Shown here one piece after another: positions 1,549 to 9,380 of a stretch of 11,118 bases of DNA. The DNA lies in the IMG/VR virus record IMGVR_UViG_2675903255_000015. The stretch is one strand, 5' to 3'. The first letter of the stretch is position 1. The number at the start of each line of letters is the position of its first letter. Under the pieces are notes generated by a model. That model was not told the origin of the DNA. It searched no databases and saw nothing but the letters and a program-made list of their open reading frames with translations. The DNA is from a virus. Taxonomy: Duplodnaviria > Heunggongvirae > Uroviricota > Caudoviricetes. Position numbers and translations under genes: made by a program.

Positions 1549-1704
1549 TTACTCCTCAGGTTCGTAAGCTGTGAAGACAGCGACCTCCGTCTGGCCGGTT
1601 CGGATTCGTACCTCGCAGAGGTCTTTCCTCGTTACCAGTGCCGTCACTATGACGATTAAACAGATGACGATCAGGGCGATTAACATCGCCTTTTGCTGCT
1701 TCAT
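1549..1704 (-). CDS. hokD: Hok-family type I toxin (HokD/RelF-like small membrane peptide, 51 aa)
   Basis: ATG at 1704 with AAGGAG 7 nt upstream. Product MKQQKAMLIALIVICLIVIVTALVTRKDLCEVRIRTGQTEVAVFTAYEPEE matches the Hok/Gef family as recalled, closest to HokD. The track ORF 1549..1761 is an in-frame upstream extension from ATG 1761 (GAGG SD), possibly a mok-like leader reading frame. Confidence 0.85.
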   Translation of the reverse strand: MKQQKAMLIALIVICLIVIVTALVTRKDLCEVRIRTGQTEVAVFTAYEPEE

Positions 1705-1744
1705 AGCCTGCTTCTCCTTGACCTTTCGGTCCGTAAGAGGCAAT

Positions 1745-1803
1745 CTATATGTGACGAGCATATAGGGGCCTCACTTCGATTTATAGTCGGGTGGGGCTTT
1801 TAT
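1745..1803 (+). ncRNA. candidate Sok-like antisense RNA to the hok leader (speculative)
   Basis: Plus-strand hairpin GCCTCAC(1768-1774)/GTGGGGC(1791-1797) followed by TTTTAT (1798-1803) is a plus-strand-specific intrinsic terminator antisense to the hok leader and mok-like start. A TTGACC -35-like hexamer sits at 1718-1723, but no convincing -10 was found, so the 5' end is not defined. Confidence 0.3.
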
Positions 1804-1896
1804 CTATCTGCCGTTGGTGTTCATGCCCGAGGCAGATAGCCTCAAGCACCCGCAGCAATCCTACTTAACTCTGCCGTTACAGCAAACCGTTTTCGC

Positions 1897-5920: not shown

Positions 5921-6443
5921 ACGCCCCCCTGGCAGACATTTGTTTATCTGCAAAGTAATATTGGTATTGCTGACGATACGCGTGCTTGAAAGCAATAGCT
6001 TTTTCTATAAGCTCGTCAGTCTCACGTTCCACAACAACTGGATCCGCAAAAAGCAGCCCGGACTCCACCACATCGCCATATTCTTTGTTTAACCCGGCGA
6101 TCATGTACGTAATGCTTTTTCCGTCAGTAATTTCACAATACAATCTGAAATCGCTGATCCGGATAGCCTCCATAATTGCCGGAATCAGCGCCGTGAATTT
6201 GTCACGCTTATCTCTGGTGTCGATAGCTTTCCAGCGTTCGAATATCTTCACCCGGTTAACGCCCAGCGCCCGTTGATCAACCTCGCCATCATTAAACGTG
6301 ACGCGTTGAACATCGATGTTCGGGCGTTCTTTCAGAGCCCAGAATGCTTCCGTGATTAATATCGTCGCCTGCTCCTGTGTCATTCCTGGTCGGCATACCC
6401 AGGTATCCAGAGCCTCACAAACCTGTTCAGTGGTGATTTTCAT
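5892..6443 (-). CDS. YdaT-like protein at the cII position (183 aa)
   Basis: ATG at 6443. Sits immediately downstream of the cro-like dicC and upstream of O. The segment KFTALIPAIMEAIRISDFRL resembles recalled Rac YdaT (...KLIPAILAILPRELRHRL). Overlaps dicC by 17 nt and the preferred O start by 29 nt. Confidence 0.6.
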   Translation of the reverse strand: MKITTEQVCEALDTWVCRPGMTQEQATILITEAFWALKERPNIDVQRVTFNDGEVDQRALGVNRVKIFERWKAIDTRDKRDKFTALIPAIMEAIRISDFRLYCEITDGKSITYMIAGLNKEYGDVVESGLLFADPVVVERETDELIEKAIAFKHAYRQQYQYYFADKQMSARGAYEYRCTTMG

Positions 6444-6654
6444 TGTTCAACCGCCCCGCCCGCTTTGCCTTACGATATTCGTCATAAACTTTGGGGTCGT
6501 ACTGAAGTTCCCCGCCGGATGCCTCTTGCAGGCGCATCGAGCGACCTTCAGGAACCAGTTCCCCCCATGCAGCAACGCTTGCCAGCCTAACTCCTGCGAC
6601 ATTGGCAAGCTTTGTTTTGCTGCCAAAAAACGCTATAGCATCAATTTTCAACAT
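6427..6654 (-). CDS. dicC: Cro-like regulator DicC (75 aa)
   Basis: ATG at 6654, divergent from dicA. Product MLKIDAIAFFGSKTKLANVAGVRLASVAAWGELVPEGRSMRLQEASGGELQYDPKVYDEYRKAKRAGRLNNENHH matches recalled K-12 DicC over most of its length. Confidence 0.8.
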   Translation of the reverse strand: MLKIDAIAFFGSKTKLANVAGVRLASVAAWGELVPEGRSMRLQEASGGELQYDPKVYDEYRKAKRAGRLNNENHH

Positions 6655-6730: not shown

Positions 6731-7138
6731 ATGAAAAACGAAACCTTCGGTGCTCGCCTCTTATACAGGCGAAAAAAATTAAAACTGTCTCAGGCCGCAT
6801 TAGGTAAGCTGGTCAAAGTGGCTCACGTAACAATTTCTCAATGGGAAAGAGATGAAACACAGCCAGCGGGGAAGAGATTATTCGCACTGAGCCAGGCGCT
6901 TCAGTGCTCGCCGACTTGGCTTCTTTTTGGAGATGAAGATAAGCAACCAGGCGAACCGATCCCAGATAATCAGCCAGTCAATCTGACAGAAGATCAAAAA
7001 GAGTTGCTTCAACTGTTCGACGCACTGCCTGAGTCAGAGCAAAAGGCTCTGTTGTCAGAGATGCGTGCTCGAGTTGAGAATTTCAACAAACTTTTTGAAG
7101 AACTACTCAAAGCTCGCAAAAGAAGCGCAAATAAATAA
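6731..7138 (+). CDS. dicA: prophage repressor DicA (HTH XRE family, 135 aa)
   Basis: Product MKNETFGARLLYRRKKLKLSQAALGKLVKVAHVTISQWERDETQPAGKRLFALSQALQCSPTWLLFGDEDKQPGEP...MRARVENFNKLFEELLKARKRSANK matches recalled K-12 DicA in length and sequence, with the HTH at residues about 20-40. Confidence 0.85.
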   Translation: MKNETFGARLLYRRKKLKLSQAALGKLVKVAHVTISQWERDETQPAGKRLFALSQALQCSPTWLLFGDEDKQPGEPIPDNQPVNLTEDQKELLQLFDALPESEQKALLSEMRARVENFNKLFEELLKARKRSANK

Positions 7139-7236: not shown

Positions 7237-7266
7237 TTGACCATAACTCTTAGGCTATTCTAAATT
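7237..7266 (+). promoter_or_regulatory. candidate early-left (dicB operon) promoter with operator-like CTTAGG half-sites
   Basis: TTGACC at 7237-7242, then a 17-18 bp spacer containing CTTAGG (7248-7253), then CTAAAT/TAAATT at 7260-7266. A second CTTAGG lies at 7214-7219. A weak AT-rich hairpin with T-run at 7171-7200 could terminate dicA. In K-12 the DicA-repressed dicB promoter lies just downstream of dicA. Confidence 0.35.
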
Positions 7267-7773: not shown

Positions 7774-7992
7774 ATGCAGAAACGAGACCCCGTCATCATC
7801 GCGCCAGACTATACCGATGATGAACTTTATGAGTGGATGCACCAGAAAATTAAGGCGGTGCAGGACCTGAAATGGGCCAATGAAGCCAGGGCTAAGCAGG
7901 CTGAAAATCTGTCCGCTCTGGAGCAGGATATCACCAATCTGGAAAAAGCAGCGGCATTAAGCATTGCCAGAATGATTACATACCCACGTTAA
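7774..7992 (+). CDS. hypothetical coiled-coil protein, 72 aa (positional counterpart of ydfC)
   Basis: ATG at 7774 with AAGGAG 7 nt upstream. Product MQKRDPVIIAPDYTDDELYEWMHQKIKAVQDLKWANEARAKQAENLSALEQDITNLEKAAALSIARMITYPR. Confidence 0.6.
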   Translation: MQKRDPVIIAPDYTDDELYEWMHQKIKAVQDLKWANEARAKQAENLSALEQDITNLEKAAALSIARMITYPR

Positions 7993-8014: not shown

Positions 8015-8422
8015 ATGGAATTTAAAGATTTACCAACGCCATTACAGGAAATGGCATCGAATATAGTTCGTTCACAACTGGCTACTCTTGACCTTAGTAC
8101 CGCAGAAAAAGAAACCATCGATAATATGGTTCGTAATGTGCGCAATGCTTTTTCTGGGCTATATGGTTCTGATAATCAAAAGCAGGAAAGCGATGTTAAT
8201 AAACGGGTAATTTCTGTTTGCGTGAATGGCCATGTTCTTTCATCAATCAAAACAGAAACGGCGACAGTCTTCGATTGCCTTTGCATTGTACAGAGCCTTG
8301 TTGATGCCCTGTTTCGTTCAGTGAATTTAGAAAATGATGCAAATCTGCGAGGGCGCATAATAGCACATCCATATGCACATACTTTAGGCTCTGTGGATAT
8401 CAAAGATCCCACAAATCTTTAA
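8015..8422 (+). CDS. hypothetical protein, 135 aa, AT-rich moron
   Basis: ATG at 8015 with GAGG 6 nt upstream. AT-rich relative to flanks. Product MEFKDLPTPLQEMASNIVRSQLATLDLSTAEKETIDNMVRNVRNAFSGLYGSDNQKQESDVNKRVISVCVNGHVLSSIKTETATVFDCLCIVQSLVDALFRSVNLENDANLRGRIIAHPYAHTLGSVDIKDPTNL. No motif recognised. Confidence 0.6.
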   Translation: MEFKDLPTPLQEMASNIVRSQLATLDLSTAEKETIDNMVRNVRNAFSGLYGSDNQKQESDVNKRVISVCVNGHVLSSIKTETATVFDCLCIVQSLVDALFRSVNLENDANLRGRIIAHPYAHTLGSVDIKDPTNL

Positions 8423-8633
8423 TGAAATAGTTAACGCGAATTGTACTTGCTCTTTCGGTTGCTTTCAGAATACGCGTTGAAACTGCTGGCGGTAATTTGG
8501 TATTCCATTTATTAAAATCATGCCCGGGAAAGTACTCTTCGAAAATACTTTTAACTGCAGACTCGCCTATTGAAATGCTGCTTACCATGCGATTTTGATA
8601 AAGGCATTTAGCAATAAGAGTTGATTTTAACAT
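8400..8633 (-). CDS. hypothetical protein, 77 aa, convergent with and antisense to the early-left operon
   Basis: ATG at 8633 with AGGAGG 4-5 nt upstream on the minus strand. AT-rich. Its 3' end overlaps the 3' end of the 135-aa gene by 23 nt. Product MLKSTLIAKCLYQNRMVSSISIGESAVKSIFEEYFPGHDFNKWNTKLPPAVSTRILKATERASTIRVNYFIKDLWDL. Confidence 0.5.
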   Translation of the reverse strand: MLKSTLIAKCLYQNRMVSSISIGESAVKSIFEEYFPGHDFNKWNTKLPPAVSTRILKATERASTIRVNYFIKDLWDL

Positions 8634-8966
8634 TCACCCTCCTGAGGGTTGGTAATTAAGGAGTTCTCCACGGGTGAAGTGGAGTGCGTGCGCCGGACAC
8701 GGGTGAACATCCGGCACTGACAGTTTACTGAAAGGATATTTCTCTGAAAAGTCAGAGCATAACGCGAAAGCGCACGGCGAGGTTGCTGGTTCATAGATAG
8801 CCTGTCGTTAAATTTTCGTCGACCGTGCGCTTCCGGTTGTGGCACTCCGCGAAATGGCGCAGCGGTAAGTATGGCGGGGTTATTCCTTCCCCGTTGAGGA
8901 CACCGGGTTGTCAGGTTGACCATACGCTTAAGTGACAACCCCGCTGCAACGCCCTCTGTTATCAAT

Positions 8967-9022
8967 TTTCTGGTGACGTTTGGCGGCATCTGTTTGCCCA
9001 TGAACTGATGTCCGCCCTTTTT
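8967..9022 (+). ncRNA. dicF: DicF-like small regulatory RNA
   Basis: TTTCTGGTGACGTTTGGCGG... matches the recalled 5' end of K-12 DicF. It ends in a GGCGG...CCGCC stem followed by CTTTTT, and sits about 170 nt upstream of dicB, as in Qin. Confidence 0.7.
8982..9022 (+). terminator. intrinsic terminator forming the DicF 3' end
   Basis: GGCGGCATC...GATGTCCGCC stem (8982-9016) followed by TTTTT (9018-9022). Confidence 0.65.
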
Positions 9023-9191
9023 AAAGTGAATTTTGTGATGCAGTGAATGCGGCTAAGCGCACGCGGAACAGTTAAAGCTAAAAACAGTGTTATGGGTGGA
9101 TTCTCTGTATCCGGCGTTAATTGTTAACTGGTTAACGTCACCTGGAGGCACCAGGCACCGCATCACAAAATTCATTGTTGAGGACGCGATA

Positions 9192-9380
9192 ATGGAAACG
9201 TTATTACCAAACGTTAATACGTCTGAAGGTTGTTTTGAAATTGGTGTCACTATCAGTAACCCTGTATTTACTGAAGATGCCATTAACAAGAGAAAACACG
9301 AACGGGAGTTATTAAATAAAATATGCATTCTTTCAATGCTGGCCCGTTTACGTCCGATACAAAAAGGATGCTGGCAATGA
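9192..9380 (+). CDS. dicB: cell-division inhibitor DicB (62 aa)
   Basis: ATG at 9192 with GAGGA upstream. Product METLLPNVNTSEGCFEIGVTISNPVFTEDAINKRKHERELLNKICILSMLARLRPIQKGCWQ is near-identical to recalled K-12 DicB. The track ORF from 9087 is an upstream in-frame extension. Confidence 0.85.
   Translation: METLLPNVNTSEGCFEIGVTISNPVFTEDAINKRKHERELLNKICILSMLARLRPIQKGCWQ

Follow-up and report, generated by a model that had tools for sequence, protein, structure and literature searches.

The untranslated RNA upstream of the small RNA (sRNA) DicF contains a 115-nucleotide (nt) plus-strand motif that consists of a closing helix, three hairpins, and a pseudoknot. It is described here from an 11,118-nt stretch of DNA (the window; IMG/VR record IMGVR_UViG_2675903255_000015) covering the immunity and early-left region of a lambdoid prophage. 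The motif occupies positions 8836 to 8950, within a block (8634 to 8968) that corresponds to the untranslated spacer between ydfC and dicF in the early-left (dicBF) operon, a repressor-controlled unit; its plus-strand transcript belongs to the operon RNA and the DicF precursor. DicF was among the first bacterial sRNAs to be described, and the ∼340 nt before it have been treated as a plain “long untranslated region.” The block itself is already known as the dicF upstream untranslated region, and sequence similarity around dicF has been noticed previously; the new element is a junction and pseudoknot RNA, supported by covariation and present even in Escherichia coli K-12. The motif lies outside put, nut, DicF, tRNA/tmRNA, and all Rfam 15 families. 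Its fold has been retained in phage P1, in lambdoid prophages of several enterobacterial genera, and in a distant environmental phage.

Junction and pseudoknot motif

The fold was first drawn by eye and then tested by pair counting. Its elements are as follows.

8836-8843/8943-8950, plus strand: closing helix P-out
8847-8851/8858-8862, plus strand: hairpin P0
8863-8874, plus strand: junction CGGUAAGUAUGG
8875-8879/8889-8893, plus strand: hairpin P1, with a pyrimidine-rich loop
8905-8915/8927-8941, plus strand: hairpin P2, with the apical loop UUGACCAUACG at 8916-8926
8905-8913/8933-8941: arms of P2, GGGTTGTCA and TGACAACCC, forming the strongest hairpin
8869-8874 with 8920-8925: pseudoknot of 6 bp between the junction (GUAUGG) and the P2 loop (CCAUAC)

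Homologues were gathered by exact-word scans of IMG/VR, of one genome per species, and of metagenomes, anchored on exact matches in the junction or the P2 loop; whether either anchor is invariant was therefore judged only from homologues collected with the other and from negated-base scans. In a MAFFT alignment of 39 representatives, 95.2% of cells were paired, compared with 37 to 56% in slid controls, and 11 pairs had changed on both sides, compared with 3.3 after shuffling, a number that none of 500 shuffles reached. A model-fitted alignment of 63 distinct sequences gave 95.5% paired cells (slid controls, 36 to 52%) and changes on both sides in 17 of 29 pairs (shuffled, 4.5 ± 1.5). When P1-type members and the pseudoknot were included, 95.5% of cells were again paired (slid controls, 32 to 52%) and 18 of 35 pairs had changed on both sides (shuffled, 8.0 ± 1.3). 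Many of the aligned sequences are close relatives and their cells are not independent events, and model-fitted alignments lean toward the model; the MAFFT alignment agrees with them.

P2 occurs with at least six stem sequences (e.g., GGGUAACCA/UGGUUACCC, GAGCUACCA/UGGUAGCUC, and GGAUCACCA/UGGUGAUCC) and the P1 hairpin with more than 10. P-out is represented by GUUGUGGY/RYRCAAC, by CGUUGCG..CUGU/ACAGCGCAACG, and, in the environmental member, by UGCAGGA/UCCUGCA. Within the pseudoknot, one U-A pair is replaced by C-G in nine sequences, from P1-type phages and the DicF-type locus L280. Paired columns contain 133 G·U cells and 36 A·C cells, and the same columns read as minus-strand RNA are 90 to 92% paired, versus 95.5% for the plus strand; selection therefore acts on the plus-strand RNA, which is the operon's sense strand. 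Module B of the block by itself folded no better than shuffles (z = −0.75), and its support is covariation, not energy. A covariance model of the motif, R1, scores the window copy at 150 bits.

A previous reading of the window from its letters alone (the sequence-only reading) had suggested that the block might hold an unannotated RNA and had named a covariation analysis and an Rfam scan as checks. Both support the suggestion: the pairs are kept across homologues with compensatory changes, no Rfam family matches the motif, and the covarying RNA at 8836 to 8950 is in no RNA family database. That reading had also noticed the CGGGG...CCCCG hairpin at 8875-8893, which is present and covaries, and had missed the strongest hairpin (P2), the closing helix, and the pseudoknot. 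The Rfam 15 search returned nothing meaningful over the motif in the window, an Erwinia homologue, or a P1-type homologue, either at gathering score or at E ≤ 10 with permissive filters; the permissive matches in the three homologues (miRNA, snoRNA, and hairpin ribozyme) are chance. The DicF family RF00039 had no match in 8634 to 8967.

Bulged helix P-L and the 5′ hairpins

The block is a chain of RNA structures, with mosaic 5′ hairpins (8647 to 8758), the long bulged helix P-L, the 115-nt junction, and then DicF 17 nt further on. As a whole it had been called structured, and its folding does exceed that of dinucleotide shuffles (plus strand, z = −3.66; minus strand, z = −3.19). The elements upstream of the motif are as follows.

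8666-8684, plus strand: hairpin H1, CUCCAC-GGGUGAA-GUGGAG, with the first copy of CACGGGTGAA; pairs kept in 47 of 54 homologous rows
8692-8715, plus strand: hairpin H2, GCCGGA-(12-nt loop)-UCCGGC, with the second copy of CACGGGTGAA in the loop
8742-8757, plus strand: hairpin H3, CUCUGA-AAAG-UCAGAG
8759-8780/8820-8841, plus strand: arms of the bulged helix P-L, ∼20 bp, with a variable apex

P-L was predicted by RNAfold in all 20 of 20 divergent homologues and in every type despite very different sequences. Cognate arms gave −19.5 kcal/mol, compared with −13.2 for noncognate arms, and mostly ranked 1 to 3 of 12; the arms covary. The core of P-L is the long-range inverted repeat of the sequence-only reading, which is real and extends to 13 nt (8765-8777/8823-8835). 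As a predicted helix of ∼20 bp in the transcript, P-L could serve as an RNase III-type site. P-L and P-out share GUUGUG at 8836-8841, which forms the outer 6 bp of P-L or the 5′ strand of P-out, its partners being an upstream CAYAAC that extends P-L and a downstream YRCAAC that forms P-out. Because the variant GUUGCG of locus L180 is compensated in the downstream partner alone, P-out is the selected pairing; the competition is nonetheless conserved. An insert of ∼100 nt at the P-L apex of Erwinia tracheiphila (L150, 4430-4530) and Izhakiella australiensis (L152, ∼2270-2370) contains two T-loop-like hairpins, GGCGGGUUCAAUUCCUGCC and GGUCCGUUCAAUUCGGAC, in which ARAGORN found no tRNA.

The three small hairpins of the 5′ part show little or mixed covariation. 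Other lineages have the hairpin ACCAACACG...CGUGUGGU in place of H1 in the alignment. H2 gives no covariation evidence, because its stem is almost invariant in 68 rows; the sequence-only reading had placed this GCCGGA/TCCGGC hairpin correctly except for its end, which is 8715 rather than 8716 (arms 8692-8697/8710-8715). The inner four pairs of H3 are kept, the outer pair 8743-8756 alternates between C-G and U-A, and the K-12 type has mismatches at both outer pairs. The direct repeat CACGGGTGAA is present at 8669-8678 and 8698-8707, as had been reported, and these are its sole two matches in the window; by itself it is not significant, since shuffles contain on average 0.67 matches (≤1 mismatch) and two matches are reached in 28 of 200. 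The two copies, in H1 and H2, vary by lineage (e.g., CACGGATAAG) and are the sole basis for a proposed array of regulator binding sites, a main role that they do not support.

Coding potential and the minus strand

The claim that the plus strand holds no open reading frame (ORF) of more than about 10 codons is wrong, as there are frames of 36 amino acids (aa; 8825-8935) and 30 aa (8916-9008), and a minus-strand ORF of 124 aa (8627-9001) that spans the entire block was overlooked. The broader claim that the block is noncoding holds: no ORF in it behaves as coding in tests of frame and periodicity among homologues. Among 60 full-length homologues, 30 retain the 124-aa frame, 23 carry a 1-nt indel at 8888, and variable columns are spread over the codon positions as 49/48/51 (P = 0.95), with no periodicity. 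Protein coding on either strand is rejected on the loss of frame, the 1-nt indels, and the even codon-position split.

The block had also been seen as the promoter region of the 77-aa leftward gene. This is not supported as its main role, as the block is 96% conserved in the Qin prophage of K-12 and is found in thousands of genomes without the gene. A consensus scan found no sigma-70-like promoter on either strand of the block, nor one for the 77-aa gene. There may be a weak leftward promoter in 8634 to 8760, since three phage types have different leftward morons directly adjoining the block on its left.

Distribution and conservation

Members of the motif family were found in Escherichia, Shigella, Citrobacter, Trabulsiella, Erwinia, Izhakiella, P1-like phages, and an AT-rich environmental phage-like contig. 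An O157:H7 prophage carries the block at 100% identity. The unannotated ydfC-dicF spacer of Qin matches it at the above identity from 8647 onward, and the K-12 counterpart of the motif is at ∼1649251-1649365 of NC_000913.3, ending 17 nt 5′ of dicF. Part of the block is present in 4,083 of 5,426 complete E. coli genomes, in up to seven copies per genome. The block is mosaic: partial matches place the left limit of homology between ∼8620 and 8850 in different phages, and the block is kept from ∼8760.

The R1 search found exactly one copy of the motif in each of the two motif-bearing whole phage genomes, Ayreon and P1, with no second copy on the pR side, and no match in HK022 or in an N-encoding Stx1c phage. 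Ayreon-type and Stx2c phages carry the motif in the pL leader, ∼300 to 360 nt past the cI gene. In P1 it scores 74 bits with R1 and starts ∼50 nt past the −10 elements of the C1-repressed promoters P1ban/P2ban, and it is followed by a strong terminator, tRNA-Asn, tRNA-Thr, tciABC, tRNA-Ile, and ban. The most divergent member (47.7 bits), on metagenome contig Ga0066602_10004510 (L354, 1418-1549, minus strand), is without P0; it lies between co-oriented genes of the AT-rich phage-like contig, and a string resembling a tRNA 3′ end, GGUUCGAUUCC, is found ∼100 nt downstream. A weak second R1 match in L248 (1104-1221, plus strand; 11.6 bits, E = 0.77) lies ∼190 nt 5′ of the true motif and may be due to chance or to a tandem duplicate that has decayed.

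Another observation concerns the P1 leader region. Approximately 60 nt past the leader terminator (68944-68976 of NC_005856.1; L334, 2839-2871), a short frame, GCA AAC GAU GAU CUG AUG AUG GUA GCG GCC UAA, encodes ANDDLMMVAA, which is similar to an SsrA degradation tag and is identical in 60 of 65 P1-like loci. The region has a weak match to the Rfam family tmRNA_permuted (24 bits, E = 0.008), and ARAGORN found no tmRNA there.

Terminator, DicF, and operon context

As the sequence-only reading had stated, the block is the 5′ flank of DicF, which starts at 8968, on the transcribed strand. The features downstream of the motif are as follows.

8951-8967, plus strand: A/U-rich single-stranded linker; by its position relative to DicF, the place where the DicF 5′ end is formed
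8968-9017 (element to 9020), plus strand: DicF sRNA, seed and intrinsic terminator; RF00039, 43.5 bits, E = 5e-8
9027-9174, plus strand: long hairpin between DicF and dicB; an inverted repeat with 19-nt arms (9027-9045/9156-9174) that are 95% complementary

An intrinsic terminator hairpin starts 0 to 34 nt (median, 21) past P-out in 177 of 191 distinct contexts, and at least one of the remaining 14 (L159) has a terminator by eye. The terminator is of the form GGCGG...CCGCC-U and follows a single-stranded segment that is lineage specific: the DicF seed, the AUUGCUGUGUGUAG, UGUUGAUUACCUUUUGG, and UGUUGAUUACC types, or the Ayreon type. Co-oriented ORFs predominate over the next 2.5 kb in 121 of 126 contexts, the five exceptions being P1-like, with tRNAs first. 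The terminator is therefore internal to the operon and must be passed by the polymerase if these ORFs are to be expressed.

The DicF seed is intact in the window, and the copy falls below the gathering score (43.5 versus 48) because its terminator hairpin differs from that of K-12 (GGCGGCAUCUG...CUGAUGUCCGCC). DicF is produced by early termination, with the 5′ end formed by RNase E and an alternative 3′ end by RNase III, and both full-length dicBF mRNA and the terminated 53-nt DicF exist (PMC5069750, PMC9438474). The reported RNase III-made 3′ end of a 72-nt DicF is where the long hairpin 9027-9174 lies (PMC5069750, PMC9438474). The long hairpin is also covered by a weak match to Rfam STnc100 at 9006-9211 on the plus strand (32.5 bits versus a gathering score of 47; E = 4e-5).

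Searches by tblastn with lambda-type and Stx/P22-type N as queries gave no N-like gene at any of 197 loci that have 3 kb or more of upstream DNA. Nor was N found in Ayreon, the window, or a Stx2c phage or, by PHROGs and Pfam, among the neighbors. No phage protein constantly adjoins the motif across the three contexts, and a host partner is therefore suggested.

Phage phiSTEC1589-Stx1c (L008, 2700-2800) carries a different sRNA-like unit, AAUAACAACAUUGCUGUGUGUAGUCAUUGGCGGAUAUCAG..., with a terminator in the DicF slot. Its CA-rich seed presumably recalls the anti-GcvB sRNA AgvB. Similar seeds of the AUUGCUGUGUGUAG type follow the motif in Izhakiella, Trabulsiella, and L173.

Locus layout

The remaining features of the locus are as follows.

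6427-6654, minus strand: DicC-like cro gene
6731-7138: DicA-like repressor gene
7237-7266: promoter-like site
7774-7992: ydfC, among small ORFs
left of the block: convergent moron gene pair encoding 135 aa (plus strand) and 77 aa (minus strand)
8634-8646, minus strand: left edge of the block, complement of the ribosome binding site of the 77-aa leftward gene (start codon 8631-8633)
9192-9377: dicB, with ydfD and an exonuclease gene further on
leftward genes at the block edge, minus strand: window, 8400-8633; L008, ∼2287-2496; L009, 2242-2442

Positions 8634 to 8646 were found only in moron-bearing variants, homology starting at 8647 in K-12 and at ∼8620 to 8630 in the window type and the STEC1589 type. 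The small leftward genes that start at the left edge of the block in three phages (77, ∼69, and 66 aa) are unrelated to each other, which suggests either a preferred point of moron insertion or a common leftward promoter within 8634 to 8760. Elsewhere in the window is a hok/sok-type toxin-antitoxin locus (1702-1851, minus strand; Rfam sok, 103.9 bits), with a Hok-like ORF at 1549-1761 on the minus strand (MKQQKAMLIALIVICLIVIVTALVTRKDLCEVRIRTGQTEVAVFTAYEPEE).

Proposed function

Computation shows that the motif has a defined fold and strand, is present in a single copy in each whole phage genome searched that carries it, is located in an early operon, and is followed by a constant terminator. 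We propose, with a probability of roughly 40%, that it acts in cis at the adjoining terminator and enables read-through by RNA only, i.e., an antitermination-type mechanism similar in action to that of HK022 put. The motif would act on its own transcript or on the elongation complex, and RNA polymerase would either stop, freeing the sRNA, or read on into dicB, ydfD, and the exonuclease gene. The choice of GUUGUG(G) between the outer part of P-L and P-out is a plausible folding or processing switch, e.g., after cleavage of P-L by RNase III. Support for read-through comes from the necessity for the polymerase to pass the terminator, the lack of N and of a protein partner, and the conservation of the loops across hosts. 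It is more doubtful that the motif represents a new class of self-sufficient antitermination RNA, unrelated to put and common to P1-like phages and N-less lambdoid phages. If it does, host polymerase would pass DicF-type and later early-operon terminators by means of the motif, and every DicF locus, including that of K-12, would be a combined “antiterminator plus sRNA” unit.

Several observations weigh against read-through. The motif occurs once per phage, whereas put and nut sit on both early operons, and it has no likeness to put in sequence or architecture. The DicF-type motif is ∼1.6 kb from the promoter-like site at 7237-7266, past several genes, and a variable seed and terminator downstream suit sRNA maturation equally well. 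The N-encoding Stx1c phage has the same sRNA slot with a mini-hairpin, GUUGU-GAAUA-ACAAC, for the motif and then the sRNA-like terminator. Four loci (L018, L058, L141, and L427) have lost the equivalent of window positions 8771 to 8847 and with it the P-L 3′ arm as well as the P-out 5′ strand. Two similar words, CGCGAAAG (8763) and CGCGAAAU (8848), apparently recombined to produce the deletion, and such variants are found in at least two sequence backgrounds. The search for N covered only two types of N and has limited sensitivity to others.

The second of two leading readings, which we consider less likely, is that an exchangeable sRNA cassette has the motif as its conserved front part, which sets or licenses the cut at the sRNA 5′ end, with P-L as the RNase III site; the motif may also shield the upstream mRNA fragment from exonucleases at its 3′ end. 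This would agree with the DicF precursor processing signals that the sequence-only reading had offered. A short single-stranded segment and the GGCGG...CCGCC-U terminator always follow the motif, and the segment is exchangeable between lineages. RNase E makes the DicF 5′ end 17 nt past P-out, and RNase III acts on the operon (PMC5069750, PMC9438474). P-L is a helix of ∼20 bp, and the presence of P2 and P-out on one continuous 3′ strand gives a cloverleaf-like topology. However, the near-invariant pseudoknotted junction, kept from P1 to the AT-rich environmental phage, far exceeds the known needs of RNase E, an sRNA occupies this slot in the Stx1c phage even though the interior of the motif is missing, and nothing tRNA-like was found by ARAGORN or Rfam. 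Global RNase III maps have no entries for the operon, which is repressed. Release of the terminated transcript (motif and tail) as a trans-acting early phage RNA, e.g., a decoy for a host protein or RNA, is improbable. For P1 and the Ayreon type, such an RNA would precede all others made from the derepressed early promoter, with its 3′ end at the terminator, and the conserved loops in distant hosts and the lack of a conserved protein neighbor are consistent with this; yet the motif is always within a co-oriented operon and never a stand-alone gene, the DicF-type motif has no promoter of its own by consensus scan, and there is no nameable target.

It is equally improbable that a metabolite, an ion, or a host protein is recognized by the junction and pseudoknot and thereby tunes the terminator, as in a riboswitch-like or protein-sensing attenuator. 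At 115 nt, with a four-way junction, a pseudoknot, and near-invariant junction nucleotides, the motif resembles riboswitch aptamers; it is directly upstream of a terminator, GUUGUG has two alternative partners, and the conserved, covarying, ligand-domain-like fold of a terminator-type riboswitch is present. This possibility is weakened because there is no conserved terminator/antiterminator alternative: the 3′ arm of the terminator pairs locally in the window, Ayreon, and P1, and a long-range competitor is found in the K-12 variant only. Further, the spacer between motif and terminator varies in sequence and length (0 to 34 nt), and the gene context yields no candidate ligand. A role for the DNA or the minus strand, either as promoter/operator of the 77-aa gene or with the 124-aa or a 54-aa minus-strand ORF as a real gene, is very improbable. 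It would accord with the leftward morons abutting the left edge in three phage types, with the minus-strand ORFs (e.g., of 54 aa) that PGAP and other pipelines at times call over the block, and with good folding of the minus strand (z = −3.19). Against it, the block is conserved without a leftward gene in K-12 and most genomes, the consensus scan found no promoter-like site, codon periodicity is absent and frameshifting indels are common, and plus-strand G·U pairs become A·C mismatches on the minus strand, with the lower pairing given above. A minus-strand promoter or gene, or chance, together account for a few percent.

Whichever role it has, the motif opens to experiment the passage of the toxic dicB operon through the DicF terminator, the read-through of leader terminators in N-less lambdoid phages and the P1 ban operon, and the setting of the sRNA 5′ end. 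It also provides annotation pipelines, several of which now call spurious minus-strand ORFs here, with a new RNA family.

Comparison with known RNA systems

Resemblance to tRNA is topological only, as ARAGORN gave nothing at the motif in six loci, and tRNA or tmRNA identity is rejected. An anti-Shine-Dalgarno-like pairing of the P1 loop with a following GAGGA, examined by eye, is not conserved across variants, and neither is a riboswitch-type alternative pairing with the terminator across the window, Ayreon, P1, and K-12 variants. A feature of P1 (68791-68892 of NC_005856.1) that is labeled just “dicF-like region” covers P2 through the terminator; it belongs to the same sequence family as the motif, and its annotation expresses sequence similarity only. 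A 1994 paper by Faubladier and Bouche reportedly speaks in its title of widespread prophage sequences around dicF. No description of the fold, pseudoknot, or function was found in the literature reached, which does not include the 1994 and 2004 P1/dicF papers, and nothing was found on a P1 ban-leader RNA.

The lambda N leader combines nutL boxA/boxB with an RNase III-sensitive hairpin, and the block resembles it in being part of a pL transcript with a long helix that RNase III could cleave. The block also offers candidates for boxA (the string UGCUCUUU / GUGCUCUC) and boxB (the hairpin CCCUGAAAAG...). The string is unlikely to be a single-stranded NusB/NusE site, because it is paired as the 3′ arm of P-L and covaries with its partner. 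A lambda-type nut site is rejected on this ground and because the boxB-like hairpin (H3) is upstream rather than downstream of the string and no cognate N of the two types searched was found.

The closest functional parallel is HK022 putL/putR, which are protein-independent processive antitermination RNAs (PMC9378689). Like put, the motif is a cis RNA in a repressor-controlled early operon of N-less lambdoid phages, upstream of terminators that polymerase has to pass, and a phage protein partner is absent in both cases (PMC9378689). In contrast, put is ∼70 nt long, has two stem-loops, and is found on both the pL and pR operons, while the motif is a 115-nt four-helix junction with a pseudoknot, found once per phage. 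Homology is not indicated: blastn at word size 7 gave chance matches of 8 to 11 nt, and R1 found nothing in HK022. With DicF-like sRNAs that derive from 3′ untranslated regions or operon interiors, the block shares its position as a precursor directly 5′ of the sRNA. We know of no precursor of an operon-internal sRNA with a conserved tertiary-structured domain upstream. Unlike these known precursors, the dicF leader has a domain that is more widely conserved than the DicF seed itself.

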